A DNA stretch of 64,000 nucleotides. It comes from Crenothrix sp. D3 (GTDB taxonomy: Bacteria; Pseudomonadota; Gammaproteobacteria; Methylococcales; Methylomonadaceae). Shown in pieces: positions 4,528-46,902 of this stretch. Position 1 is the first letter of the stretch; the number at the start of each line of letters is the position of its first letter. The translations under genes were made by a program, and so were the position numbers. The notes beneath the pieces were generated by a model. That model made no database searches, was not told the origin of the DNA, and was given only the letters and a program-made list of their open reading frames with translations. The stretch covers positions 26,865 to 90,864 of the forward strand of contig MBQZ01000103.1 of NCBI GenBank assembly GCA_002134785.1, given 5' to 3'.

Positions 4528-6018
4528 ATGAAACTTCCTATTTTCGCTAAGCTATTCATCACGTTACTACTCAGCATTGGGATTATGATTGCCGTGATGA
4601 TAGGCTCGGCAGATTGGCTATTTCGTCAGGGTTTCACCGAATATTTACAGCAAGTTGAGGCTAATCGCTTAGGCTTTTTAATCAGTCAGTTAGAAGAGAC
4701 TTATCAAAAACAAGGTAGCTGGGATTTTTTGCAAAACAATCCACAACAATGGCGTGCGTTCTTAATAAAACTTGCAGGCAAAGATGCACCACCCGATGAC
4801 CGTCCGCCACCGCCTGATAACAATGGTTTTACCCCACAAGATTACCCACCGCAACCTGAGCAACGTGGTTTTGTACCCGAAGATCATCCGCCGCCTTATG
4901 GTTCACCGCCACCGCGCCCACCAGACCCGTTACAATTAGGTAAACGCTTACGGCTGTTAAATGCAAACCATGATTATGTGATTGGCGCACATTTTGAAGA
5001 GAAGCCTATTACGCGGGAGCTAAAGGTAAATCAACAAGTTATCGGCTGGCTAGACATTCGTCCCAATGAGGCAATGACTGATGAACTGGCTTCAACCTTC
5101 ATAGCGCAACAACAACAAGCCAAAACGATGCTCAGTGGTCTAGCCTTTGCACTGTCCATTTTTGCAGCGTGGCTATTAGCACGGCAATTATTATTACCGA
5201 TACGTCGTATTGGTGGAGGTGTGAAAGCACTGGCAGCGGGTGAATATCAAACGCGTATTAAAGCCAATGGTCATGATGAGTTAGGTCAATTATCCCAATA
5301 TTTTAATTCACTGGCACAAACCCTACAGCAAAATGAAACCGCACGGCGGCAATGGATAGCCGATATTTCTCATGAATTGCGCACTCCATTATCGGTGTTG
5401 CGTGGAGAGCTTGAAGCGTTGCAAGATGGTGTACGCCAACCTACCCCTGACCGTATTCACTCTTTACACAGTGAAGTGTTAGCCTTAACCAAATTGGTAG
5501 AAGATTTGTATGAGTTGTCGTTGTCCGATGTAGGCGCGATGAATTATCACAAAGAACGCATCAACGTCACCGACATCATACTGGGTATACAGCAGAATTT
5601 TGTGGCTCGCTTTGCCAGTCGGGGCATTGTGTTACGCGAAATTACTAGTCCAGATCTGGTATTGCCCGTGTTTGCCGATGCACGACGGCTGTATCAATTA
5701 TTTTCTAATTTAGCCGAAAACAGTTACCGCTATACTAACGAAGGTGGGTTTTGTGAAATTACTTTGTATAGAACTAAGCAAACCGTGATGATTACGTTTC
5801 AAGATTCCGCGCCTAGTGTCCCGCCTGATGCACTGCCAAAATTATTTGATCGCCTGTATCGCGTAGAAAAATCTCGCAGTCGTGAATTAGGCGGCGCAGG
5901 TTTAGGATTAGCGATTTGTAAAAATATTGTTGAAGCACATGGCGGCACAATAACCGCCTATCAAAGTCAATACGGCGGCTTATCTATTCAAGTAGAATTA
6001 CCGTTATTGCTGGAATAA
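4528..6018 (+). CDS. Two-component sensor histidine kinase (BaeS/CpxA-like) with a proline-rich periplasmic segment
   Basis: Two TM segments, a HAMP-like region, H-box 'ADISHELRTPLSVL' and G-boxes 'GGAGLGLAICKNIVEAHGG'. Confidence 0.85.
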   Translation: MKLPIFAKLFITLLLSIGIMIAVMIGSADWLFRQGFTEYLQQVEANRLGFLISQLEETYQKQGSWDFLQNNPQQWRAFLIKLAGKDAPPDDRPPPPDNNGFTPQDYPPQPEQRGFVPEDHPPPYGSPPPRPPDPLQLGKRLRLLNANHDYVIGAHFEEKPITRELKVNQQVIGWLDIRPNEAMTDELASTFIAQQQQAKTMLSGLAFALSIFAAWLLARQLLLPIRRIGGGVKALAAGEYQTRIKANGHDELGQLSQYFNSLAQTLQQNETARRQWIADISHELRTPLSVLRGELEALQDGVRQPTPDRIHSLHSEVLALTKLVEDLYELSLSDVGAMNYHKERINVTDIILGIQQNFVARFASRGIVLREITSPDLVLPVFADARRLYQLFSNLAENSYRYTNEGGFCEITLYRTKQTVMITFQDSAPSVPPDALPKLFDRLYRVEKSRSRELGGAGLGLAICKNIVEAHGGTITAYQSQYGGLSIQVELPLLLE

Positions 6019-6065
6019 AGAATGCCATACTCCTTACAACGATATAATTAACAATAGTAACTACC

Positions 6066-6770
6066 ATGAACTGCATCACGCAAAAAACCATTTTAATTGT
6101 TGAAGATGAAGCCAAACTTGCCAGCTTACTGAGTGAATACCTAGCTTTAGCGGATTATGCCACGCATATTATCGCCGATGGTTTAGCAGTCGTGCCGTGG
6201 CTACGCACGCACTCTGCTGATTTGATTGTGCTTGATTTAATGCTACCGAATCGAGACGGCATTGAATTGTGCCGCGATATACGTCAATTTTCTAATGTCC
6301 CCATTATCATGACTACCGCGCGTATTGAAGAAATTGACCGTTTATTAGGTTTAGCCTTAGGCGCGGATGATTATATTTGTAAACCCTATAGCCCACGCGA
6401 AGTGGTGGCGCGTATTAAAGCGGTGTTGCGCCGCATTAATCCAGAACAACAACCTACCATCATACCCAGCACGCCAGAGTTACTCTCTTTAGATCCCCTC
6501 AGTTATCGCGTCAGTGTCGGTAAACAAAGCATCAGCTTATCGACTATTGAATTTATGCTACTCAACACCCTACATCAAGAACCCACACGGCTGTTCTCTC
6601 GTAATCAACTCATGGATAATATTTATAGCGACCAGCGCGTTGTGCTAGATAGAACGGTGGACAGCCATATCAAAAAACTGCGCAAAAAACTCACCGTATT
6701 ATTGCCTGATTATGAGCTGATTCATGCGATGTATGGCGCGGGGTATTGTTATGAAGCGCGGTTGAAGTAG
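6066..6770 (+). CDS. OmpR-family response regulator (receiver plus winged-helix)
   Basis: 'ILIVEDEAKLA...DLIVLDLMLP' receiver and C-terminal 'VDSHIKKLRKKL...GAGY' trans_reg_C motif. It lies adjacent to the kinase gene. Confidence 0.9.
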   Translation: MNCITQKTILIVEDEAKLASLLSEYLALADYATHIIADGLAVVPWLRTHSADLIVLDLMLPNRDGIELCRDIRQFSNVPIIMTTARIEEIDRLLGLALGADDYICKPYSPREVVARIKAVLRRINPEQQPTIIPSTPELLSLDPLSYRVSVGKQSISLSTIEFMLLNTLHQEPTRLFSRNQLMDNIYSDQRVVLDRTVDSHIKKLRKKLTVLLPDYELIHAMYGAGYCYEARLK

Positions 6771-6853: not shown

Positions 6854-7252
6854 TTAATCCAGTAAATCGGGGGGGATATTACCGCCATTTTCTGCGAGTT
6901 TTCTTAATACAGTTTTATGTAACCACATATTCATCTGCGCGGAATCACTCATTTTCCCCGCTGGACAGCCCAATTCTGCCGCTAGTTCTTTACGCACAGT
7001 CAAACTACTATCCAATTTCAGCAACTTTAACAAATCGACGATAGACGTTTTCCAATTCAGTTTTTCTGCGTGGGCAGCGGCTAAGTCTGTCAATTTAGCG
7101 ACCACATCAACCTCAACCGCGTTAGCATTGACAACGACAGGTGCTTGGCTAACGGCTTCTTCTACAGGAGCTGATGCAGCTTGCTCAATGACTTCATCAG
7201 CGGCGGCACTGCTGATACCGAGTGTTTCGAAAATGGAGCTAAATATACTCAT
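6854..7252 (-). CDS. DUF3597-like protein
   Basis: The 'MSIFSSIF...' N-terminus, an Ala/Val-rich linker and a conserved C-terminal 'LNWKTSIVDLLKLLKLDSS...MNMWLHK' resemble DUF3597 proteins (from memory). Confidence 0.6.
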   Translation of the reverse strand: MSIFSSIFETLGISSAAADEVIEQAASAPVEEAVSQAPVVVNANAVEVDVVAKLTDLAAAHAEKLNWKTSIVDLLKLLKLDSSLTVRKELAAELGCPAGKMSDSAQMNMWLHKTVLRKLAENGGNIPPDLLD

Positions 7253-7322
7253 GGTTGTTCCTCAATGTTAAAGTGAAATGTGAAATATTTTGCATAGCGC
7301 GTGGAAACTATAACATTGAATA

Positions 7323-7352
7323 GAAAAAACGGGCGAAGATACTCCGCCCGTT
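7323..7352 (-). terminator. Rho-independent terminator downstream of the smbP-like gene
   Basis: Hairpin acgggcg(7329-7335)/cgcccgt(7345-7351), followed on the minus strand by a T-run. Confidence 0.6.
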
Positions 7353-7370
7353 TTTAAAAAGCTGTATTAG

Positions 7371-7727
7371 TTATTGTTTACTAGCATTAAGGTGTTCTAC
7401 TCCCGCTTCAGCCGCCTTAGTTGCCGCTGGTGCGTGTCCTAACTCGCCTTCATCAATGGATTTTTGCAATGAATCAGCGGCTGCATCTATGTGAGTTTTT
7501 GGTACACCTTTTGCCACTAAAGAGGCTGATAGCGTATGATTCAACGCCAATTTAGCGTGTTCAACTAAAATAGGCGCGTGTCCCGCCTTACCGTGTACCA
7601 CAGCGGCATGAGCGTGTTCCAACGCGGTATTAACGTGTTCTACTCCCTTGTCACTCAATCCTGCGGCAAAAACGGTTGTGCTTGCACACAGTAATAAACC
7701 TGCAAATACAGATGCTAATTTTTTCAT
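7371..7727 (-). CDS. Periplasmic His-rich small metal-binding protein (SmbP-like)
   Basis: Signal peptide 'MKKLASVFAGLLLCASTTVFA'. Repeated 'HA..A..HGK.GHA' helices rich in His. ATG at 7725-7727 follows 'aagggga'. Confidence 0.6.
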   Translation of the reverse strand: MKKLASVFAGLLLCASTTVFAAGLSDKGVEHVNTALEHAHAAVVHGKAGHAPILVEHAKLALNHTLSASLVAKGVPKTHIDAAADSLQKSIDEGELGHAPAATKAAEAGVEHLNASKQ

Positions 7728-8004
7728 GTTCTTCCCCTTAAGTATGATTTTGATTATCAAATGTTGATACCACTTTACTTGAGATAACTGTGACCACTAA
7801 CATGAAGTGGCAAACTAATGGCTCAACGTTCGCATTGTAAACACTATTGAATTTATTTTGCAAATGACTGATTAATCTAATATCTGCTCTCCACATTTAT
7901 TCCCTAATAGATTCCTTTTTCGTCCTTATTTGTTACACAATTTACCCGTATCTTATGACCCATGAGCAACAGCAACGGTTGCGCAACAACACAAGGAGAA
8001 GGTA

Positions 8005-8250
8005 ATGAAAAATACATTGTTAGCATCAAAACGACTGGCATTGTCAGAAAGTGGCTTTGTTTTTGATCCTGTGTCAGGGCAGAGCTTTTCCGTTAATGAG
8101 TCGGGGCTGGTGTTTCTGCGTTTAGCGCAACACGAAGATGACCTCGATAAACTCACCACACAACTGGTTGAACAATTTGATGCCAGCAGCGTAGAAATTA
8201 AACGTGATGTGCAGGATTTTATTAATCGCCTGCAAGGATTTTTAAAATGA
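8005..8250 (+). CDS. PqqD-family protein (RiPP-recognition-element-like peptide chaperone)
   Basis: 81 aa. 'GFVFDPVSGQSFSVNESGLVFLRL...DLDKLTTQLVEQFD...IKRDVQDFINRLQGFL' follows the PqqD/PF05402 pattern. Its stop overlaps the next start (ATGA). Confidence 0.65.
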   Translation: MKNTLLASKRLALSESGFVFDPVSGQSFSVNESGLVFLRLAQHEDDLDKLTTQLVEQFDASSVEIKRDVQDFINRLQGFLK

Positions 8251-9311
8251 GCATCACGGTCGCCGTTACAGGCATGAATGCCCGCGCAGATAATCCAGGA
8301 CCTGGTTTAGCCATCGCACGGTGTTTAAAAGAATCCAACACGCCCACTCGCGTGGTCGGTTTGGGTTATGAAGCATTAGACCCCGCGTTATATCACCGTG
8401 GTTTTGTCGATAGAGGTTATTTACTGCCCTACCCTTCACACGGTGAAGATGCTTTATTAGCGCGAGTGTGTGAACTCCATGAACGGGAAAAATTCGACGT
8501 ATTAATTCCCTGTTTAGATGCAGAAATGCAAAGTTTTGCACGGCTCGCACCAACCTTAGCAGGCATGGGCATTCGTACTTTTATTCCTAATAGCCATCAA
8601 TTAGCCTTGCGCAGTAAAGACCGTTTACCCGAATTGGCAAAAGAAATCGGCATTGCATCGCCCAAAACCCAAGCCATTTATCAAGCGAACTTTTTTCACA
8701 GCTGTCAAAGCCAAGACTGGCAGTATCCGCTGATGGTTAAGGGTTTATTTTATGATGCCAAAATCGCTTATAACGCAGAGGAAGCTGTCGCGGCATTTCA
8801 CCGTATAGCAGGTGAATGGGGCGTTCCCGTGTTGGCGCAAAGCTGGATTGGTGGTGAAGAGATTAATCTGGCGGGTGTCGGTGATGGTGAAGGCGGTTTA
8901 GCGGGTGCAGTGATGATGAAAAAACGCGCCCTGACCGATAAAGGAAAAGGTTGGGCAGGTATTAGCATTCATGATGAAGAACTACTTGCTGCCGCCCAGA
9001 AATTTTGTGCAGTTACTAAATGGCGCGGCGGTTTAGAGCTGGAAATGTTGCGCGATACCCAAGGCGGTCTGCATTTAATTGAAATTAATCCCCGTTTTCC
9101 CGCGTGGATTTATTTATCCGCAGGCGTGGGCTGTAACTTACCTGAACTGTTGGTCAAACTAGCATTAGGTGAAAAATTAATCCCCTCGACACCGACACCC
9201 GCAGGCGTGCTGTTCATTCGCTATGCCGAAGAAGCCATTGTGTCATTAGCTGATTTTGAAAATATAACCGTGTGGGGCGAGACGCTACGCACAGAAGGAG
9301 CATTCGCATGA
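8247..9311 (+). CDS. ATP-grasp carboxylate-amine ligase, substrate unknown
   Basis: 'PLMVKG', 'EEINLAGVGDGEG' and 'LELEMLRD...LHLIEINPRFPAW' (E-x-N Mg/ATP motif), 354 aa. Confidence 0.75.
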   Translation: MSITVAVTGMNARADNPGPGLAIARCLKESNTPTRVVGLGYEALDPALYHRGFVDRGYLLPYPSHGEDALLARVCELHEREKFDVLIPCLDAEMQSFARLAPTLAGMGIRTFIPNSHQLALRSKDRLPELAKEIGIASPKTQAIYQANFFHSCQSQDWQYPLMVKGLFYDAKIAYNAEEAVAAFHRIAGEWGVPVLAQSWIGGEEINLAGVGDGEGGLAGAVMMKKRALTDKGKGWAGISIHDEELLAAAQKFCAVTKWRGGLELEMLRDTQGGLHLIEINPRFPAWIYLSAGVGCNLPELLVKLALGEKLIPSTPTPAGVLFIRYAEEAIVSLADFENITVWGETLRTEGAFA

Positions 9312-10693
9312 AAAATATCACCACTAAAAACCCGTGGGTCGCCCCTGTCATAGTTCGTCATGCGTCTAGCGGCATGAATAAATTCGGTGGGGTGCGTGAT
9401 GCGCAATTTCGCGATGAAATTGCTGGTGTGTCGATTGCCGAACTGGTAGAAAAATACGGTTCGCCGCTGTTCGTGTTATCGGAAGAACATTTACGCCAAT
9501 CGGTGCGCCGTATTAACCGCGCTTTTACCACCCGCTATGCCAAAGTGCGCCAAGCGTGGTCGTATAAAACCAATTATATCAACGCGGTCTCCGCCATTTT
9601 GCACCAAGAAGGCTGTGATGCCGAAGTGGTGTCTGAATTTGAATACGACAAAGCCCGCCGTTTAGGTGTGCCTGCGTCGCGGATTTTCTTTAATGGCCCC
9701 TATAAATCACGCGGTGCATTAACCAAAGCGGTGAGCGAAGGGGCGCGAATTCATGTTGACCATTTGGACGAACTAGCATTATTAGAAGAAGTCGCGGCTG
9801 AACTGGGCATTTTGAACTTCCCGATTACCATTCGCTTGAACTTTGATACAGGCTTTGCGGAAAACTGGGGACGCTTTGGGTTTAACTTAGAAAACGGGCA
9901 GGCAATGGAAGCGGCGCGGCGTATTGCCGCCAGTCCCAATTTAAAACTCACAGGGCTGCATAATCATATCGGCACGTTTATCACTGACCCGCGTGCTTAT
10001 ACCGCGCAAGTCGGCATCATGATTAATTTTATGAACAATGTGGAAGCGGCGACTGATTGCACCATCACCACGCTGGATATAGGCGGCGGTTTTGCCTCGC
10101 GTAATGCCATGCAGGGCGTGTATTTACCGCCTGAACAAATTACCCCCACCGCTGAGCAATACGCCGAAGCGATTTGTGGCGCGTTAGCGATTGGCTTAAA
10201 AGACCGTGAACAACACGGCAAGCCGTTACCCGAATTAGTGTTAGAAACAGGTCGCGCGGTAGTCGATGAAGCGGAATGGCTAATTTCCAGCGTGGTGGCG
10301 AATAAACGCCTGCCGACTGGGCAACGCGCTATGGTGCTGGACGCAGGCGTGAATATTTTATTCACCGCGTTTTGGTATAACCACGAAGTACGCCCTGCGC
10401 GTCCTGTGGAAGGTATCCCCGAAGACACCGTGTTGTATGGCCCGTTGTGTATGAACATTGATGTGGTGCGTCAATCAGTGAGTTTGCCGCCGCTGAAAAC
10501 AGGCGATTTATTGTCGTTTTGGCCTGTCGGTGCTTATAACAATACCCAGTGGATGCAGTTTATTCAGCTCCGCCCTGCGGTGGTCATGGTGCGACAAAAC
10601 GGACAGGTGGATGTAGTGCGCCGCGCGGAAACGCTGGATGATGTGGAAGAACCTGAACGCTTGCCAGCGGATTTGCAACCTGATTTTTCTTAG
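9308..10693 (+). CDS. PLP-dependent decarboxylase, Orn/DAP/Arg decarboxylase (alanine-racemase-fold) family
   Basis: 'GSPLFVLSEEHLR', 'AWSYKTNY' (PLP lysine context), 'LDIGGGF' and 'ETGRAVV' motifs. ATG at 9308 overlaps the upstream stop (ATGA). Confidence 0.8.
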   Translation: MKNITTKNPWVAPVIVRHASSGMNKFGGVRDAQFRDEIAGVSIAELVEKYGSPLFVLSEEHLRQSVRRINRAFTTRYAKVRQAWSYKTNYINAVSAILHQEGCDAEVVSEFEYDKARRLGVPASRIFFNGPYKSRGALTKAVSEGARIHVDHLDELALLEEVAAELGILNFPITIRLNFDTGFAENWGRFGFNLENGQAMEAARRIAASPNLKLTGLHNHIGTFITDPRAYTAQVGIMINFMNNVEAATDCTITTLDIGGGFASRNAMQGVYLPPEQITPTAEQYAEAICGALAIGLKDREQHGKPLPELVLETGRAVVDEAEWLISSVVANKRLPTGQRAMVLDAGVNILFTAFWYNHEVRPARPVEGIPEDTVLYGPLCMNIDVVRQSVSLPPLKTGDLLSFWPVGAYNNTQWMQFIQLRPAVVMVRQNGQVDVVRRAETLDDVEEPERLPADLQPDFS

Positions 10694-10699
10694 CCACTT

Positions 10700-10770
10700 G
10701 TAGGGGCAATCCCTTGTGGTTGACCTGATAACGACCTATTCACAGGGCTGGCACAAGGCACAGCCCCTAC
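10700..10770. repeat. Palindromic intergenic repeat, family R1 (GTAGGGGCAATCCCTTGTGGTTG...GGCACAGCCCCTAC)
   Basis: Near-identical copy at 44271-44332. The termini are inverted repeats gtaggggc/gcccctac. Confidence 0.8.
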
Positions 10771-10828
10771 TTTTAGGCTTAACTTAATGGCGACGCTGCG
10801 TGTGGAAACGAGAAATAAAGAATTAACC

Positions 10829-12961
10829 ATGATGACATCACATTCAATCAAAGTTTTTTGCCAACACTTAGCCCAAGGTTACGCGTGGATATTACTCATG
10901 CCCTCCACTCGTGCTGGCGTGGTACTGATAATGGCAACCTTCGCCACGCCCAACATCGCTATCATCGGTTTATTAGGTGCGAGTTTCACATTATTGAGCG
11001 CACGCGGCTTGCGTGTCACCGAGGGCTTGTCGGCGGTTTATGTGTTTAATGGGCTATTAACAGGCTTGTTTCTTGCCGCGCATTATCAAACTACAGTGCA
11101 TCTCTTATTGTTGCTGGTCTTTGCAAGTGTATTAGTTGCCTTAATAACCCATAGCGTTGCGGGCGTATTGTGGCGATTTTCTCAATTGCCTGTATTGAGT
11201 TTGCCGTTTGTCTTGGCGGCGTGGCTGGCGCAACTGGCAGGAACGAGTTACGGCAATTTATTACCTATTGCTGATGCTAGCCATCTGTCTACCGATTGGA
11301 TAGATACTTTTTTTACTAGCTTGGCGAGCATCTTTTTTCAGCCTAATCCGTACTTGGGTGGCGTGTTATTTATCACACTGTTCATCACTTCGCGCACTTT
11401 GGCTTTTTTAGCGGTGTTGGGATTTTTGGCAGGTGTCGGGTGGCACACACTGTTCACGGGTAACGTGGCAGTTTATGTTGCACCGAATTGGATTTTTAAT
11501 TCAATGTTAGCGGCAATGGCAACAGGTGGATTATTTGTCGTTCCCAGTGTTGGCGGTTTGTTATTAGGCACGGTGGCAGCGTTGTTAGCAGCATTATTAG
11601 CGGCGGCACTCAGTCAATGTTTATTGCCTTTTGGTTTATCGCCGTTAGCCTTGCCGTTTTTACTGTCAACGTGGCTGTGTTTGTACACGGCACAACGCTC
11701 TGGAAAACCTGCGTTAGTCGGTGAACGCGTGCAGTTACCCGAAAAATCCTTAGAAGATGGTCGCTTAGCCCGCACACGGCTGGGTAATCCTGCCAGTGTG
11801 GCGTTGATTCCGCCGTTTATGGGAACATGGCAAGTATCACAAGGACGCGATGGCGAACATACGCACCGTGGATTGTGGCGTGATGCGCTGGATTTTATTG
11901 TCACCGAAGACGGGCAGAGTTTTCATGGTAATGGGCTAGTCGTTGAAGATTTTTTCTGTTTTGGTTTGCCGATAGTCTCACCTTGTTATGGGCAGGTAGT
12001 GCAACTACAAAATAATGTGCTTGATAATGCGATTGGTGAAGTGAATTTACGCGAAAACTGGGGCAACTATGTAGTCATCCGTTTGTATGAGGGTGTTTAT
12101 GTATTATTGGCACATTTACGCTATAACAGCCTCAGTGTCACTGTCGGCGATTGGCTAAAAACAGGGCAAGCAGTGGCACAATGCGGTAATTCAGGACGTT
12201 CACCACAACCGCATTTGCATTTTTCGGTGCTACGTCATGCGACACCCGAAGCGGAAACCCGCCCGTTTCATCTCATCGGTGTGTTATTACAAGCCGAAAA
12301 AAACAATGCCGTTTTTCATCTATGGGCAAATCCTCAACAAAACGACAAAGTCACCGCAGCGTGGTTTGGTGCAGTGCGCCCTTTATCATTGCGGGTCGGT
12401 TTAGGACGCAGTTATCGAGTGCGCGTGAATGGCGGGCAATGGCAATCGTGGCAACTGACTCCGCAACTCAATTTAGCAGGGCAGTTTTTGTTAGTGTCTG
12501 AGTCAGGCGCGAGTTGTTGTTGTGAAGAAAATGGTGCGGTCTTTGCTTGTTATGGGCGCGAAGGCGGCGCAGATGTGTTTCTTGATTTATGGCTATTAGC
12601 GGTCGGTTGCACGCCGTCTTCTGAACACGCGAAACAATGGCGCGATAGCCCGCCAACGCGCTTATTACCCAGCCGCTGGCGGTGGTTGAGTGCGTTATTA
12701 GCCCCTTATGCCACGCAAATCAACGCCCACTATGCTCGCAGTTTTGATGATGCGGCGCGAGTATGGCGACAAACAAGTACGCTTTTCTTATTGGGTAAAC
12801 AAGTGATGACCATTGAAACGGCGATTGTTGCTAATAATGGACTTACTTATTTATTAGCAAATAGCGCGGGGCAACGCTGGGAAATGATACTGGAAGGTGC
12901 GTTTCAAACGGGCGATACGGGTGTTCCTGAACGTGAATGGGCGATAGACACGAACATTTAA
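10829..12961 (+). CDS. Fusion membrane protein: N-terminal urea-transporter-like polytopic domain, M23 (LytM) metallopeptidase domain and an unknown C-terminal region
   Basis: About 300 aa of hydrophobic helices. Then 'HTHRGLWRDALDF' (HxxxD) and 'GNSGRSPQPHLHFSV' (HxH), the M23 motifs. The start is uncertain (10787 or 10829). Confidence 0.6.
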   Translation: MMTSHSIKVFCQHLAQGYAWILLMPSTRAGVVLIMATFATPNIAIIGLLGASFTLLSARGLRVTEGLSAVYVFNGLLTGLFLAAHYQTTVHLLLLLVFASVLVALITHSVAGVLWRFSQLPVLSLPFVLAAWLAQLAGTSYGNLLPIADASHLSTDWIDTFFTSLASIFFQPNPYLGGVLFITLFITSRTLAFLAVLGFLAGVGWHTLFTGNVAVYVAPNWIFNSMLAAMATGGLFVVPSVGGLLLGTVAALLAALLAAALSQCLLPFGLSPLALPFLLSTWLCLYTAQRSGKPALVGERVQLPEKSLEDGRLARTRLGNPASVALIPPFMGTWQVSQGRDGEHTHRGLWRDALDFIVTEDGQSFHGNGLVVEDFFCFGLPIVSPCYGQVVQLQNNVLDNAIGEVNLRENWGNYVVIRLYEGVYVLLAHLRYNSLSVTVGDWLKTGQAVAQCGNSGRSPQPHLHFSVLRHATPEAETRPFHLIGVLLQAEKNNAVFHLWANPQQNDKVTAAWFGAVRPLSLRVGLGRSYRVRVNGGQWQSWQLTPQLNLAGQFLLVSESGASCCCEENGAVFACYGREGGADVFLDLWLLAVGCTPSSEHAKQWRDSPPTRLLPSRWRWLSALLAPYATQINAHYARSFDDAARVWRQTSTLFLLGKQVMTIETAIVANNGLTYLLANSAGQRWEMILEGAFQTGDTGVPEREWAIDTNI

Positions 12962-12988: not shown

Positions 12989-13876
12989 ATGAAAAAAAAC
13001 ATAATGCTGTTGTGCTGTACGACTGTACTGGCAAGCTCACTGACGCACGCCAGTGAAGCATGGAAAGTAAATACAGCGGCTCAAGGTACTTATTTAGGTT
13101 ATTCAAACTCACAGTATCGTGACTCACTGCATGAAGAAGGCGCGGTGGTATCGGCTGATTATTTAGATGAAGGCGGAGTCACTGCGGGTTATACGCACAC
13201 TGAACTGACGCTTAAAAATAATCAACCTAGACTTGATCAAAATTCTTATTTTTTATCCGCGCGTAAACATTTTTACATTGACGAACTGGCTGGGAAAATC
13301 ACGCTACGCGCTGATGGGCATTTTATTGATAACACCGACCCTAGTAATGATACCGATGATGTCAGTGTCGGTGCTACTCAAGCCAGTTATCTCAGTAATA
13401 ATAAAAAATATTATGCTGATTTTGGTTATGCCTACAGTCATTATCAAAATAATCTCCATGTTAGCCAATACACGCCCACTGTCGGCGTTGGTGTGTTTGA
13501 TGGTGATGGTTGGTTGCAATTACGCGGTTATTTTATTGAAACGTCCAACCCAGAACGCGCTCAAGGCTTAAGTTCCACGCAAGCCGCAGAAATTAAATAT
13601 ACCCATTGGCTTACGCCTGACGGACTGTTTAAACCCAGTAATTTACAAATCGGCGGCTTAGTGGGTAGACGTTTTTATGCCGTCGATATGGATGCGGGTA
13701 CGGTGGCTAACTTAGCCGATGTACAAACAGGCGGTATCACGACAGGGGCAGAATGGAAGGTAAGCGAACATGGCAAGGTATTATTACTAGGAGGCAATAA
13801 TTTTTATAAAAATAGAACCGCAAGCGACAGTTACTCAGGGGCGTTTGGTTATCTGAATGCTAGCGTTGTTTGGTAA
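12989..13876 (+). CDS. Putative outer-membrane beta-barrel protein
   Basis: Signal peptide 'MKKNIMLLCCTTVLASSLTHA', alternating amphipathic strands rich in Y/G, and a C-terminal aromatic residue '...NASVVW'. Confidence 0.5.
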   Translation: MKKNIMLLCCTTVLASSLTHASEAWKVNTAAQGTYLGYSNSQYRDSLHEEGAVVSADYLDEGGVTAGYTHTELTLKNNQPRLDQNSYFLSARKHFYIDELAGKITLRADGHFIDNTDPSNDTDDVSVGATQASYLSNNKKYYADFGYAYSHYQNNLHVSQYTPTVGVGVFDGDGWLQLRGYFIETSNPERAQGLSSTQAAEIKYTHWLTPDGLFKPSNLQIGGLVGRRFYAVDMDAGTVANLADVQTGGITTGAEWKVSEHGKVLLLGGNNFYKNRTASDSYSGAFGYLNASVVW

Positions 13877-18977: not shown

Positions 18978-20816
18978 TCATTTTTCCAAATAAGTATAAG
19001 CCGTTAATCCCGCTAGTAATTCTTGTTCATAATCATGCTGGTCTTTGCGACTGAGCTGACTATTCACTAGCTTTTCACGATAGGCGATTTTTAATTCTTC
19101 GGTGCTGATATGCACATAATCCAATAAATCAGCGACATTTTCACCTTTGTGCAAATCGTAAAAATGGTAGCCGTTATCATCGAGTTCGATATTAATCGAA
19201 TGGGTATCACCAAACAAATTGTGCATATCGCCTAAAATTTCTTGATACGCACCCAGCATAAAAAACCCAATAAGATACGGCTGTTCGCTATCAATAGCAT
19301 GAATGGGTAGCGTGTGTTCGATATTCTGACCATCAATATATTGGTCAATACGTCCGTCGGAATCACAGGTTAAATCCTGTAATACAGCGCGACGTGTTGG
19401 CTGTTCATTCAAGCGATGAATCGGCATAATGGGGAAAATTTGATCAATCCCCCAGACATCGGGCAGTGATTGAAACAGCGAGAAGTTACAAAACACTTTA
19501 TCTGCCAATTTTTCATCAAGTTCTTGCAAAATGGTCGCTTCGCTTTGATTCGTTGGATTAAGTTGATTTTTAATCTGCTGACAGACCAGCGCGTAATTAT
19601 TTTCAGCAGCCGCTAAGCCATCAATGCTTAATTTATCTTGGGTAAATTGAGTTCGCGCTTCAAACAGTGAGAACTGGGCATTGTGATAATGTTCCGTTAA
19701 ATTCGCGACACTGGGTAACGCTAATAACTCGGCTTCATTGCTGTAAACGGATTCCACATCGGTGACATTGGTGATAAGTACCGCGTGATGCGCAGTCAAC
19801 GCTCTGCCTGATTCGGTAATAATATTCGGTTGCGGCAGTTCTTTTTCTGCACAAATATCGGCAAAACTGCGAACTATATTTTGCGCGTATTCATCCAAAC
19901 TGTAATTAATCGACGATTCACGGCGTGAGCGGCTACCGTCATAATCCACCCCTAAACCACCACCTGCATCAACAATTTTTATGTCCGCGCCCAAACGATG
20001 TAATTCAACATAAAACTGCCCTGCTTCTTTGAGTGCGATTTTAATGTCATGAATATTGGCAATTTGCGAACCCATGTGAAAGTGCATGAGCTTCAGCGTA
20101 TCTAATAAATCCGCTTGTTTTAGACGGTCAATCAGTTGCAATACTTCGTGAGCATGAAAACCGAATTTGGATTTTTCGCCGCCGCTGTTTTGCCATTTAC
20201 CCGCGCTGATACTGGATAAACGAATCCGCACGCCTAATTGTGGCTTTACATTGAGCTTTGCCGCTTCTTCAATAATGAGTTCGAGTTCGAGTGGTTTTTC
20301 AATGACTAGATATAAATCTAAGCCCATTTTCAAACCAATCAACGCGAGGCGAATATAAGCGCGGTCTTTGTAACCATTGCAAATAACTACACCTTTTTTA
20401 GATAACGCCATAATGACGAGTAATTCAGGTTTACTACCTGCTTCCAAACCAATATTATCTGCCGCTAAAATGCCTTCCACGACTTTGCGTTGTTGATTGA
20501 CTTTAATGGGATAAACAGGCGTGTAACTGCCTTGATAATTGTGTTGCACACAGGCTTTAGCAAAGGCGTTTTGTAAGCGTTTCACACGGTCTTTTAAAAT
20601 ATCCGTAAAACGCACTAACACGGGTAGCGACAACTGCTTGTCATTAAGTGATAGAGCTATCTCATATAAATCTAACTCAGTTGCTTGTTCTGAACTGGGT
20701 TTAACGCAGACATGACCTTTATCATTAATGGAAAAATAACCATCACCCCAGTTGTCGATGGCGTAAGTTTGTGCTGATTGCTGGATTGTCCACGTTGGGT
20801 TGGTGCTTGAATTCAC
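18978..20816 (-). CDS. speA: Biosynthetic arginine decarboxylase
   Basis: 612 aa. 'WGDGYFSIN', 'YPIKVNQQ' (PLP lysine), 'GGGLGVDYDG' and the conserved C-terminal region. Confidence 0.95.
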   Translation of the reverse strand: MNSSTNPTWTIQQSAQTYAIDNWGDGYFSINDKGHVCVKPSSEQATELDLYEIALSLNDKQLSLPVLVRFTDILKDRVKRLQNAFAKACVQHNYQGSYTPVYPIKVNQQRKVVEGILAADNIGLEAGSKPELLVIMALSKKGVVICNGYKDRAYIRLALIGLKMGLDLYLVIEKPLELELIIEEAAKLNVKPQLGVRIRLSSISAGKWQNSGGEKSKFGFHAHEVLQLIDRLKQADLLDTLKLMHFHMGSQIANIHDIKIALKEAGQFYVELHRLGADIKIVDAGGGLGVDYDGSRSRRESSINYSLDEYAQNIVRSFADICAEKELPQPNIITESGRALTAHHAVLITNVTDVESVYSNEAELLALPSVANLTEHYHNAQFSLFEARTQFTQDKLSIDGLAAAENNYALVCQQIKNQLNPTNQSEATILQELDEKLADKVFCNFSLFQSLPDVWGIDQIFPIMPIHRLNEQPTRRAVLQDLTCDSDGRIDQYIDGQNIEHTLPIHAIDSEQPYLIGFFMLGAYQEILGDMHNLFGDTHSINIELDDNGYHFYDLHKGENVADLLDYVHISTEELKIAYREKLVNSQLSRKDQHDYEQELLAGLTAYTYLEK

Positions 20817-44256: not shown

Positions 44257-44270
44257 TTAATCGGGGTGCT

Positions 44271-44332
44271 GTAGGGGCAATCCCTTGTGGTTGCCCTGTT
44301 ATTAAAGGCTGGCATAAGGCACAGCCCCCTAC
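44271..44332. repeat. Second copy of the R1 palindromic repeat
   Basis: 'gtaggggcaatcccttgtggttgccctg...ggcataaggcacagccccctac'. It overlaps the stop of the downstream minus-strand gene. Confidence 0.8.
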
Positions 44333-46902
44333 TTTGATAACCGTTTTACGCCTGCTGAAGAAAGTAACTGTACAAAATCAGCCTCTAGCATAGGTTTACT
44401 GTGCAGATAACCTTGATACATATCACAACCCTGTTCGCGTAAAAATGCCAATTGTTCAGCCGTTTCTACGCCTTCTGCTAATACTTTAAAACCTAAATGA
44501 TGCGCCATTGCAATAATGGTTGCAGTGATTGCCATATCACCTGCTAAAAAAGGAATATCATCAATAAAGGTTTTGTCGATTTTTAATAAATCAACGGGGA
44601 AATATTTAAGATATGCCAACGATGAGTAGCCTGTACCAAAATCATCAATAGCAAATCGCACGCCTTGTTTATGAAGGCTATTAAGAATCTCCATAGTGTG
44701 TTGTTGATTATCCATTAAACCACTTTCGGTGATTTCCAATTCCAGATGCTCAACGGGAAATCCTGTATCAAGTAATACTTGAGTAACCAGCGCGTTAATA
44801 TTACTGCGGCTAAATTGATGAGGGGAGACATTAACTGCCAAGGTAATGGCAGGTAAACCTTGATCTAACCATTGCCGACCTAGCCTACAGGTTTCTCGTA
44901 GCACAAATTCACCCAAAGCGACAATTAAATCAGTATCCTCGGCAAGCGAAATAAATTCACTGGGCATAATAAAACCATGAATAGGATCATGCCAACGCAC
45001 TAAAGCTTCGGCACCGATAATACAGCCACTATTAATGTCGATTTGGGGTTGAAAATAAACCTGTAGTTCGTTTTGCTCAATGGCGTGAGATAAACGGGCT
45101 TCCAATTCAATGCGTTCACGCGCTTTTTCTGTTAATTCATCAGAAAAATAAGCAAAGCAACCGCGCCCTGATTCCTTGGCATGATAGAGAGCCGTATCAG
45201 CATTATCAATCAATGTTTCTAAGGTGTAGCCATGTTGTGGATAAAGAGCAATACCAATACTAACTCCGATATTTACAGTGTAATGTTCAGCCAGTGTAAA
45301 GGGTTGTTTTAAGCTGATAATAATATCGTCGGCAACCCGCGCCACATTTTCATAATGTTTGACATTTTCCATTAGAATGACAAATTCATCACCACCTAAT
45401 CGTGCCACTGTATCTACTTCACGCACACAAGATTGAATGCGTATAGCCACTTGTTGCAATAATTTATCGCCTGCAGCATGACCAAAATTATCATTAACGG
45501 CTTTAAATTTATCTAAATCCATCATTAACACTGCCATCAGATTACCTGTGCGATGATTAATATCAATGCCATGTTCGATGCGCATGTGTAGTAATCGGCG
45601 ATTAGCTAACTGTGTTAAAGGATCATAAAAAGCCAAGTTGTTAATATGTTCCTCAGCGGCTTTGCGTTCAGTAATGTCTTCCACCATTACCATAACGTAA
45701 TCGACTTCACTATTGGGCTTACGAACGCAACGTATGACTAACTTAGTGGGAATAATTTTTCCAGTGCGGCTAATAAAACGTTTTTCCATTGTGTAACCAT
45801 TAATTTCATTCGCTAACAATCGTTCAAATTGTTCAACATCGGCAGCTAAATCATCTGGATAAGTCAGTTCAGCCCACGTCATAAGACGTAATTCTTGTTC
45901 TGAATACTCTATCATGTCACACAAATATTGATTAATACGAATCCAGAATTTTTCAGGTGACGTAATTGCTAAGCCGACTAAATCTAACTCGTAAAATGCG
46001 CGTAATTGCTCGTCCGCTTGTTTACGCTCAGCTTCAACGTGTGCAAGAGTAACCTGCTTTTCTAATAACCAGCCCAACACACTGTTTTTCGAGGCATTGG
46101 GACATGAAAAATCGCCACTACCAAAATGAGAAATACATTTTTGCAGTTGATCCACTGAACCACCCAACACGGCATTCAAAGCGCGATAGGCAAGCACCAG
46201 CGTCAACAATAATAGCAATCCAAAAATGATAAATAATATCCACATGAGTGTTGCAGTACTCTCTGCGGAGTGAACAGTTTTTAGTATGCGCTGTTCTATC
46301 ATCAGATTGAATTTACCGATGGGCTGCATAATACGCGCCTTGGCTTGAAAATAAGTTGGGGAAAATAATAACGCTAGTGCTTTGCGGCGATTATCATCAG
46401 TGGTTGGCTGAGTGGCTTCGATTAACGCCATCGCGGCAAATTCATCGCGTGTCAATAAATCGGAATTGTGCTTAGCTTGTGTTAGTTTGGCAAATTCTGC
46501 TGCGGTAAAATGAACTTGCTGCTGAATTTGCTGCATGAGTTCTAGCAAGGTAATCGACTGACTTTTAGCACGAGGTCGTCGATTGTCTGCCAATACCAAG
46601 TCCCAATAAACATCTTCATAGCTTAATGGACGAGGGCTTTTACCCTCACGAATAGCGATAATTTCCAGATAGAGTTGCTTGTAAATAGGATTGCCCGTTG
46701 CCACATAGCTGCGCACTGTGTTACTGAGATCGTCAGACGAATGGCGTAATTCATCTGCCAGTAAAAATGCCTGCAAGCGCGACTCGTTAGCTAGACCTAT
46801 CTGTTTTTCTGAATGGATATAAAAGCTAAAGCTAAGAGAGAAAATGACAAACATCCCCAATACGAGCCAAAGACTGCGCGTAAACCTTAATAAGTTAGTC
46901 AT
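44329..46902 (-). CDS. Membrane sensor with PAS, GGDEF and EAL domains (c-di-GMP turnover)
   Basis: Two TM helices flank a periplasmic domain. A PAS domain follows, then 'RLGGDEFVIL', 'EALVRW' and 'DDFGTGYSSL'. Confidence 0.9.
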   Translation of the reverse strand: MTNLLRFTRSLWLVLGMFVIFSLSFSFYIHSEKQIGLANESRLQAFLLADELRHSSDDLSNTVRSYVATGNPIYKQLYLEIIAIREGKSPRPLSYEDVYWDLVLADNRRPRAKSQSITLLELMQQIQQQVHFTAAEFAKLTQAKHNSDLLTRDEFAAMALIEATQPTTDDNRRKALALLFSPTYFQAKARIMQPIGKFNLMIEQRILKTVHSAESTATLMWILFIIFGLLLLLTLVLAYRALNAVLGGSVDQLQKCISHFGSGDFSCPNASKNSVLGWLLEKQVTLAHVEAERKQADEQLRAFYELDLVGLAITSPEKFWIRINQYLCDMIEYSEQELRLMTWAELTYPDDLAADVEQFERLLANEINGYTMEKRFISRTGKIIPTKLVIRCVRKPNSEVDYVMVMVEDITERKAAEEHINNLAFYDPLTQLANRRLLHMRIEHGIDINHRTGNLMAVLMMDLDKFKAVNDNFGHAAGDKLLQQVAIRIQSCVREVDTVARLGGDEFVILMENVKHYENVARVADDIIISLKQPFTLAEHYTVNIGVSIGIALYPQHGYTLETLIDNADTALYHAKESGRGCFAYFSDELTEKARERIELEARLSHAIEQNELQVYFQPQIDINSGCIIGAEALVRWHDPIHGFIMPSEFISLAEDTDLIVALGEFVLRETCRLGRQWLDQGLPAITLAVNVSPHQFSRSNINALVTQVLLDTGFPVEHLELEITESGLMDNQQHTMEILNSLHKQGVRFAIDDFGTGYSSLAYLKYFPVDLLKIDKTFIDDIPFLAGDMAITATIIAMAHHLGFKVLAEGVETAEQLAFLREQGCDMYQGYLHSKPMLEADFVQLLSSAGVKRLSK

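Follow-up and report, generated by a model that had tools for sequence, protein, structure and literature searches.

An undescribed operon joining a PqqD-fold protein, an ATP-grasp ligase and a FigC-like decarboxylase to a channel–peptidase fusion in Crenothrix sp. D3 and other diderm bacteria

Three overlapping genes, which encode a PqqD-family protein, an ATP-grasp ligase, and a pyridoxal phosphate (PLP)-dependent decarboxylase, raise the question of what they make together and whether they act alone. The genes lie in a stretch of 64,000 nucleotides of Crenothrix sp. D3 (GCA_002134785.1, contig MBQZ01000103.1, positions 26,865 to 90,864 of the forward strand), which is referred to here as the window and whose positions are used throughout. 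The initial annotation described them as a translationally coupled trio ending at 10693. The coupling can be read directly in the sequence: all three open reading frames (ORFs) are on the plus strand, ATGA overlaps join them at 8247-8250 and 9308-9311, and a Shine-Dalgarno-like AGGAG/AAGGA is found 6-11 nt upstream of each start (8005, 8247, and 9308). The family assignments made at that stage also hold, with PF05402, PF15632, and PF02784/PF00278 all giving matches. The unit does not end at 10693, however, as three more plus-strand genes continue it to 14515. The operon has six genes, encoding, in order, the PqqD-family protein, the ATP-grasp ligase, the decarboxylase, a fusion of a urea transporter (UT) channel with an M23 metallopeptidase (UT-M23), a protein of outer-membrane type, and a TPR protein (Table 1).

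The arrangement recurs far beyond the genus. A scan of one genome per species returned at least 570 stretches encoding relatives, and the best 80 of these, on which the phylum survey is based, come from Gamma-, Beta-, Alpha-, Zeta-, and Deltaproteobacteria, Nitrospirae, Acidobacteria, Bacteroidota, Ignavibacteria, Melainabacteria/Obscuribacterales, Myxococcota, and Vulcanimicrobiota, that is, about ten phyla overall; only diderm phyla are represented among the relatives examined. The order PqqD–ATP-grasp–decarboxylase–UT-M23 is complete in 69 of 82 related loci, counted as independent and non-redundant, while the other 13 are mostly truncated by contig ends. In the neighborhood analysis suggested for the trio, the gene arrangement is conserved, and it is far beyond chance. 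The coupling is also recurrent: 56 of 80 loci have an overlap between the PqqD and ATP-grasp genes (37 of them of exactly 4 nt), and there is one between the ATP-grasp and decarboxylase genes in 22 of 77 (exactly 4 nt in 15) and between the decarboxylase and UT-M23 genes in 20 of 71 (exactly 4 nt in 12), the last pair being at most 30 nt apart in 52 of these 71. The four-gene core stands by itself in Melainabacteria and is followed in Proteobacteria and Nitrospirae by the 295-aa outer-membrane-type protein and the TPR protein. The full set of six, in unchanged order, is present on contigs from Rhodocyclales, Nitrospirae, and a JGI metagenome that carry ATP-grasp homologues. The system is accordingly a four-gene core with two envelope genes and recurrent regulators, not a trio; the initial annotation was right in what it observed and wrong in the boundaries it drew, and its interpretation is supported in part.

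No model of this operon was found in Pfam, NCBIfam, or PADLOC, and full-text searching of the published literature revealed no description of the gene combination, in agreement with the initial annotation, which had not recognized a described pathway. The public names are limited to "ATP-grasp domain-containing protein", "PqqD family protein", and "urea transporter", and the PqqD protein of the window is 100% identical to the hypothetical protein BCS42_10495 of Crenothrix sp. D3. The operon is real, widespread, and undescribed; its component families are already known and its ligase/decarboxylase logic has precedents, and no precedent was found for a precursor-less PqqD protein or for the UT-M23 fusion. 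We tentatively read it as an envelope-spanning operon that would make and release a small amide conjugate, decarboxylated, and not a ribosomal peptide of the classical kind, a reading that we favor while placing it below an even chance.

Table 1. Positions of the operon genes and of the other features discussed, as numbered in the window.
Feature	Positions	Strand	Evidence or remark
PqqD-family (RRE-fold) protein, 81 aa	8005-8250	+	PF05402, E 2e-10
ATP-grasp ligase, uncharacterized family, 354 aa	8247-9311	+	PF15632, AF2 model
Alanine-racemase-fold (fold-III) PLP decarboxylase, FslC/FigC-like, 461 aa from ATG	9308-10693	+	PF02784, PF00278
Inner-membrane fusion: UT channel, M23 metallopeptidase, orphan beta-rich C-terminal domain	10787-12961	+	PF03253, PF01551
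Secreted 295-aa protein, probable outer-membrane beta-barrel, new family	12989-13876	+	Signal peptide, terminal aromatic residue
Secreted TPR protein, 202 aa	13907-14515	+	TPR Pfam matches (weak TPR_Slam included), signal peptide visible
Conserved non-coding upstream region, promoter/operator candidate with Shine-Dalgarno site	7875-8004	+	
REP-like palindromic element	10699-10771	+	Between decarboxylase and UT-M23 genes
BaeS-like sensor histidine kinase (HAMP-HisKA-HATPase), probable operon regulator	4528-6018	+	Pfam, NCBIfam
BaeR/OmpR-type response regulator, kinase partner	6066-6770	+	BaeR model 298.6 bits, below cut-off
aKG-HExxH peptide beta-hydroxylase, 326 aa	15259-16239	-	TIGR04267; neighbor
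Cyanophycin-synthetase-like (CphA-like) ATP-grasp without Mur-ligase half, 619 aa	16639-18498	-	Neighbor
speA (arginine decarboxylase)	18978-20816	-	Neighbor

The decarboxylase matches PF02784 with an E value of 7e-32 and PF00278 with 2.5e-12, and its general fold-III catalytic apparatus is complete (K87 as the PLP lysine, GLHNHIG, DIGGG, ETGR, and C381). Its best solved relative is the N-citrylornithine decarboxylase FslC/FigC (7kh2; 187 bits, E 5e-54), followed by diaminopimelate (DAP) decarboxylases with at most 138 bits and by BtrK with 72 bits. FigC, SbnH, AcsE, MccE, and BtrK share a clade with DAP decarboxylase (DAPDC), and these five enzymes decarboxylate pre-conjugated amino acids (PMC7857480). 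The specificity residues of FigC and DAPDC named in the same study were transferred to the present enzyme through its alignment with the solved relatives. T353 occupies the position of the arginine that binds the distal carboxylate in the M. jannaschii DAPDC, with T327 as the FigC equivalent, and M382, which follows the catalytic cysteine, takes the position of the DAPDC glutamate, with M355 in FigC; the two enzymes thus share Thr and Met in place of the DAP-binding Arg and Glu. Y357, corresponding to FigC Y331, is also kept. In contrast, the residues by which FigC contacts citrate (H357, R387, and N389) are I384, Q414, and M416 here. The resulting pocket is aromatic and uncharged (W356, Y357, I384, Q414, and W415). 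At least 70 of 72 orthologues carry K87, T353, W356, Y357, H359, C381-M-N-I, G408-A-Y-N, T413, Q414, and W415, which makes these residues invariant or nearly so; on account of this conservation of the pocket we take the family to have one conserved substrate. Judged from these residues, free DAP and a citryl conjugate are both improbable as the substrate, whose distal part is probably bulky and without charge.

A housekeeping lysA, which the initial annotation had named among the outcomes that would refute it, does not fit, since the score against the lysA equivalog TIGR01048 is 219.5 bits versus a cut-off of 297.9 and both the DAP-binding glutamate (CES changed to CMN) and arginine (changed to T353) are absent. 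A true FslC was rejected as well, because the citrate-binding residues are replaced and the partner synthetase of the NRPS-independent siderophore (NIS) type is missing; the score against the FslC model NF041039 is 216.6 bits, the cut-off being 500. Neither a NIS synthetase nor an exporter of the major facilitator superfamily (MFS) is found in the window or in the related loci.

The same residues bear on the order of the two reactions. The initial annotation had the decarboxylase generate an amine that is subsequently ligated, and in this order a free amine, such as cadaverine or putrescine, would be made first and then joined to the carboxylate of a peptide or metabolite held by the PqqD protein. 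ATP-grasp enzymes are generally known to ligate free amines, glutathionylspermidine synthetase being an example, and the order of the reactions is not dictated by the order of the genes. However, the position next to the catalytic cysteine, where enzymes acting on free Orn, Lys, Arg, or DAP hold the side-chain amine with an acidic residue, is occupied by an invariant methionine as in FigC, the arginine that binds the DAP carboxylate is replaced by a threonine, and the closest characterized relatives all act on conjugates. We therefore regard amine formation before ligation as improbable, and less likely than the reverse.

The ATP-grasp ligase is assigned only marginally by sequence (PF15632, 32.4 bits versus a cut-off of 29.1), while its AlphaFold2 (AF2) model (pLDDT 90) has a clear ATP-grasp fold. 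Its neighbors in Foldseek are 2pn1, enzymes of the carbamoyl phosphate synthetase (CPS) type, biotin carboxylases, PurD, and PylC, whose product is an N-epsilon-acyl-lysine. The catalytic motifs are intact, with K165, E264/E266, and E279-I-N-P-R283 invariant in the orthologue alignment. More than 2300 homologues exist, none of which is functionally named. A graspetide cluster was considered and discarded, as there is no precursor and the nearest folds are those of the CPS, biotin carboxylase, PurD, and PylC types; in a survey of graspetides, PqqD is mentioned only as an analogy, and no decarboxylase, M23 peptidase, or urea transporter occurs (PMC8939145).

Two known pathways pair an amide-forming ligase with a decarboxylase of this clade. 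The rhizoferrin pathway of Francisella combines the NIS synthetase FslA/FigA with FslC/FigC and resembles the present operon in having an amide ligase together with a decarboxylase of the alanine-racemase fold whose substrate is the conjugate and not the free amino acid; it differs in using a NIS synthetase instead of an ATP-grasp enzyme and an MFS pump instead of the UT-M23 fusion, and in having no counterpart of the PqqD protein. Butirosin biosynthesis (BtrI, BtrJ, and BtrK; 7ru7/2j66) modifies a tethered gamma-glutamyl group by means of a small accessory protein, an ATP-grasp enzyme, and a decarboxylase from this same clade. BtrI, however, is a phosphopantetheinyl carrier, whereas the PqqD fold has no conserved attachment terminus, BtrK is the more distant relative, and there is no aminoglycoside context here. 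By analogy with FigA/FigC and BtrJ/BtrK, ligation followed by decarboxylation of the conjugate would be the best-supported order for the present operon.

If the small protein at the head of the operon were a RiPP recognition element (RRE) in the classical sense, the operon would be expected to act on a ribosomally made and post-translationally modified peptide (RiPP); the initial annotation took the protein to imply a peptide ligand. In such a system the precursor would be distant, too short, or divergent, and the PqqD protein would be a true RRE presenting a ribosomal peptide; the ATP-grasp enzyme would add an amino acid through a side-chain or isopeptide bond, the decarboxylase would turn the appended residue into an amine, and the M23 domain would remove the leader at a Gly-rich site before the product leaves through the fused channel, in a manner likened to peptidase-containing ABC exporters and to the lasso B1/B2/C triad. 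The 81-aa protein passes PF05402 comfortably (41.2 bits, cut-off 23.4), its top NCBIfam match is the lasso-peptide chaperone model, and an RRE, a protease, and an ATP-dependent amide-forming enzyme are indeed present together. M23 enzymes typically cleave Gly-Gly bonds. Among the clade-2 decarboxylases, MccE has the peptide microcin C as its substrate (PMC7857480). On the other hand, the five NCBIfam models of PqqD subfamilies (lasso, PQQ, HPr-rel-A, WgkC, and Scm) all remain below their cut-offs, the top score being 28.3 versus 70, and the UT pore is too narrow for a peptide.

The absence of a precursor also weighs against a RiPP. Two all-against-all screens were made over 80 loci, one of ORFs of at least 12 aa within 700 bp of the cluster ends and the other of ORFs of 18-110 aa within ±8 kb, and in both of them PqqD and its antisense frames were the only conserved small ORF. 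This is also the outcome of the check for conserved small ORFs that had been proposed earlier, with the reservation that peptides below about 20 aa are poorly detected by BLAST and that very short precursors could escape both screens. No conserved ORF was found in the 240-bp region upstream of PqqD, in agreement with the initial annotation. The last ~130 nt of this region align well with the closest relative (L088), in which the small ORFs that they contain are not preserved, and a scan of 7875-8004 for the sigma-70 consensus gave no outstanding match. One of these ORFs, of 16 aa at 7955-8005 (MTHEQQQRLRNNTRRR), runs into the PqqD start, its stop codon forming TAATG with it; it was considered as a precursor and dismissed, being probably not a gene because its ATG is lost in the closest relative. 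With no conserved small ORF other than PqqD in 80 loci, a classical RiPP cluster is not supported, and we consider a RiPP-like system unlikely.

RRE-dependent RiPP clusters (PQQ, lasso, and mycofactocin) share with the present operon a stand-alone PqqD-fold protein translationally coupled to a modifying enzyme, as well as a protease and an ATP-dependent amide-forming enzyme in one operon. They differ in that here no precursor is encoded in cis, the partner is an ATP-grasp enzyme instead of a radical-SAM, YcaO, or Asn-synthetase-like enzyme, and PqqD is in some genomes fused to a TetR domain; the B2 transglutaminase-fold protease and the C Asn-synthetase-like cyclase of lasso clusters were not found in the locus with Pfam and NCBIfam. 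In the orthologue alignment the PqqD protein has a conserved N-terminal motif, LAxSExGFVFDPxxGxSFxxN, and two unconserved termini. Because neither terminus is conserved, a carrier role like that of LysW is unlikely, and a carrier of LysW or BtrI type was rejected also in view of the PqqD fold. In 11 of the first 86 loci, and in a closer relative (L091), PqqD forms the C-terminal domain of a ~260-aa protein (L008, L009, L012, L027, L028, L029, L037, L038, L040, L041, L050, and L091), in which a TetR-family regulator domain of ~190 aa is joined to it in frame through a conserved LPWE motif (e.g., L041:1851-2645); TetR_N is significant in Pfam for two of the three fusion sequences tested. These fusions, about a dozen in all, suggest an adaptor or sensing role of PqqD that is tied to regulation, and together with the missing precursor they speak against the peptide ligand that the PqqD fold had been taken to imply.

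The fourth core gene connects the operon to the inner membrane. Its product has 724 aa when read from 10787, whereas its orthologues have 706-710 aa, and the true start is for this reason probably M15 at 10829. The matches to PF03253 (151.8 bits, E 3e-44) and PF01551 (E 2.5e-13) are clear, and the AF2 model (pLDDT 89, pTM 0.82) separates into three parts. Residues 20-305 superpose on the Desulfovibrio dvUT (3k3f, Foldseek TM 0.82) and also on mammalian UTs, the peptidoglycan M23 enzymes Csd1, EnpA, and LytM are the structural matches of residues 340-495, and the beta-rich residues 496-724 gave no relative in profile searches of Pfam and PDB. In the M23 domain, H360, D369, H443, H476, and H478 are invariant in 39 sequences, the HxH motif being H476-L-H478 and the first motif having an atypical H-x8-D spacing. 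Given this invariance of the metal and catalytic residues, activity of the peptidase is probable. In UT proteins, both termini lie in the cytoplasm. The linker after the last UT helix is rich in Lys and Arg, of which it contains seven, while the central loop has none. From this linker and the N-in/C-in topology we infer that the M23 domain is cytoplasmic.

The public annotation would suggest a simpler role, in which the locus serves urea or nitrogen uptake of the ordinary kind through import of urea by the UT, the remaining genes being neighbors without a connection to it. The fold is that of a genuine UT, with ten helices, 24% identity to the urea channels dvUT and Yut, and the FNG and FNS pore motifs kept. 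Against this, the UT of the related loci is always fused to M23 and always placed after the same three genes, often with 4-nt overlaps, the yut equivalog TIGR03441 gives 79 bits versus a cut-off of 275, and urease or urea amidolyase genes are not recurrent near the cluster. The UT signature motif is LPxxTxPF; in the present protein its two copies read LPVLSLPF and LSPLALPF, both threonines being replaced (by Ser and Ala). The orphan domain and the M23 fusion likewise set the protein apart from urea channels, and we find urea uptake highly improbable as the function of the operon. A conceptual parallel only is offered by the ABC exporters with C39 peptidases, in which a cytoplasm-facing peptidase is also fused to a product-releasing membrane protein; the operon differs from them in its passive UT fold, its zinc M23 peptidase, and its lack of an ATPase and of any known double-glycine substrate.

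The two last genes would extend the operon to the outer membrane. The 295-aa protein has a signal peptide and a C-terminal aromatic residue in 14 of 14 aligned orthologues and gave no match in Pfam or PDB, profile searches included. In Bacteroidota, Ignavibacteria, and one Myxococcota locus its place is taken by a secreted TPR-containing protein of 387-466 aa, usually with a W-x-F C-terminus and followed by a separate TPR protein. A TPR protein is present 3' of the cluster in 48 of 82 loci. A barrel of the Slam or type XI kind was rejected, as SlipAM (PF04575) matches neither the 295-aa protein nor the TPR-barrel proteins of Bacteroidota. As a separate observation, a Methylococcales relative (L090:10146-13505) carries 3' of the cluster a Slam-type outer-membrane protein with TPR and SlipAM, a FecR-like protein, and a CHASE2-guanylate cyclase.

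A BaeSR-like two-component system is often adjacent to the operon, which would usually be controlled by such a system or by a PqqD-fused TetR domain. The kinase of the window has full-length orthologues with 35-40% identity that adjoin the cluster in six loci (L026, L042, L052, L054, L055, and L092), and orthologues of the response regulator, with 45-54% identity, do so in nine, which belong to Melainabacteria, Vulcanimicrobiota, Accumulibacter, and Fluviicoccus. In several of these loci the BaeSR-like pair lies directly 3' of UT-M23. Spy/LTXXQ-like periplasmic genes occur in or beside the cluster in two relatives: in L088 such a gene (11495-11824) is located between the decarboxylase and UT-M23 genes, and in L092 (Fluviicoccus keumensis) a small secreted LTXXQ/Spy/CpxP-like protein (5907-6299) is coupled to the PqqD start. 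These genes hint at a link to envelope stress.

Such surroundings also suit a remodeling or recycling of cell-envelope peptides, in which the M23 domain would cut peptides of peptidoglycan type, the ATP-grasp enzyme would re-ligate amino acids in a Ddl- or Mur-like manner, the DAPDC-like enzyme would decarboxylate the free D-center of stem-peptide meso-DAP to give Lys, and the barrel and TPR proteins would link the process to the outer membrane. The structural neighbors of the M23 domain are all peptidoglycan endopeptidases, the decarboxylase falls in the clade that contains DAPDC and would take a substrate whose distal amine is acylated, as in stem-peptide DAP, and both the restriction to diderm phyla and the closeness of envelope-stress regulators and Spy-like genes agree with this proposal. 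It is opposed by the predicted cytoplasmic position of M23, by the lack of recurrent mur, amp, or ldt genes in the neighborhoods, and by the fact that no role in muropeptide traffic is known for a UT channel and none in peptidoglycan for PqqD. We consider envelope remodeling distinctly improbable.

For the synthesis and release of a small amide conjugate, which we prefer, the following sequence of events can be proposed. In the first step, a carboxylate would be activated by the ATP-grasp enzyme, to which PqqD would be tightly coupled as an adaptor subunit, and attached to a diamino acid through the amine of its side chain; alternatively, the gamma-carboxyl of Glu would be joined to an amine. 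The alpha-amino-acid end of the conjugate would stay free. The FigC-like decarboxylase, as suggested by its homology and pocket residues, would then strip the alpha-carboxyl from the conjugate to give an N-acyl-diamine or a product of 4-aminobutyryl type. In the third step, the M23 domain on the cytoplasmic face of the UT channel may cut off a part that had served as protection or scaffold, and the product, small and for the most part neutral, would exit via the UT pore. Finally, the secreted barrel-type and TPR proteins would carry out the passage through the outer membrane.

Several points weigh against this proposal. All of its chemistry is inference, and the order of ligase before decarboxylase is not provable from sequence. 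PqqD is a peptide-binding fold, and a pure adaptor role for it is uncertain. Cytoplasmic M23 peptidases are unusual, and the topology is a predicted one. The narrow UT pores select planar amides of the size of urea, which makes the passage of an acyl-diamine doubtful, and the changes of Thr to Ser and Ala in the LPxxTxPF motifs may or may not widen the pore. Moreover, the call of an outer-membrane barrel rests solely on the signal peptide and the terminal aromatic residue.

Some features of the locus appear to be local. The 93-bp gap 3' of the decarboxylase gene holds a palindromic element of ~70 nt, reading TGTAGGGGCAATCCCTTGTGG ... CACAGCCCCTAC, which by appearance is a repeat of the repetitive extragenic palindromic (REP) or miniature inverted-repeat transposable element (MITE) type and whose computed hairpin has a folding energy of -39 kcal/mol (z -2.5). 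At least two intergenic copies exist, and we attribute the gap to a local insertion because of the second copy, at 44270-44340. The element is missing from the orthologous loci; in the closest relative its position is occupied by the Spy/LTXXQ-like gene mentioned above. An extra small gene for an OmpA/OmpX-like outer-membrane beta-barrel is seen between the decarboxylase and UT-M23 genes in a metagenome-assembled genome of a zetaproteobacterium (L027:10481-11056). Between the BaeSR-like genes and the operon of the window, on the minus strand at 6854-7760, there are genes for a DUF3597 protein and a small metal-binding protein (SMBP, PF16785), neither of which was seen at other loci.

The island downstream of the operon, with speA, the CphA-like ATP-grasp gene, and the HExxH hydroxylase gene, may be a separate peptide- or polymer-modifying system. 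The initial annotation was right to place the speA island and its second ATP-grasp enzyme beside the operon in the window, but this adjacency is not conserved in other genomes, and a functional link was rejected in favor of an incidental one. Three further contexts were also discarded. Anti-phage defense found only a noise match of PADLOC on the TPR protein, and the paper on the zetaproteobacterial stalk (sfz) cluster names none of the present genes. Carriage on plasmids rested on a single, distant Streptomyces match, to an unrelated hypothetical protein of 758 aa; it is encoded at 134492-136768 of the S. zaomyceticus plasmid NZ_CP108525.1 (L087), its N-terminus is distantly related (34%) to the ATP-grasp enzyme, and it adjoins a fatty-acid desaturase gene in an unrelated context.

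In its widest form, our interpretation has two parts. The first is a phylum-spanning envelope system in which a precursor-less RRE serves as adaptor or sensor for the ATP-grasp/decarboxylase pair and a UT-M23 fusion cleaves and releases the product. The second is a new class of small amine-amide metabolites, for example an effector responsive to envelope stress or metals, that leaves through a passive channel and a new barrel family. That both parts hold together is doubtful. If our reading holds, the operon would represent a new biosynthetic logic, that is, an ATP-grasp ligation followed by decarboxylation of the conjugate, in which the logic of NIS siderophores and butirosin is wired differently. 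It would also give a PqqD/RRE protein its first role outside the presentation of precursor peptides, and it would assign a function for the first time to the many proteins annotated as "urea transporter" that are in reality UT-M23 fusions. The carriers include methanotrophs, iron oxidizers, Accumulibacter, Melainabacteria, Bacteroidota, and Myxococcota, among which a shared product would be of ecological interest. Since Fluviicoccus keumensis, Mariprofundus sp. EBB-1, Mucilaginibacter dorajii, and M. psychrotolerans are cultured carriers, the question of what the operon makes is directly testable.

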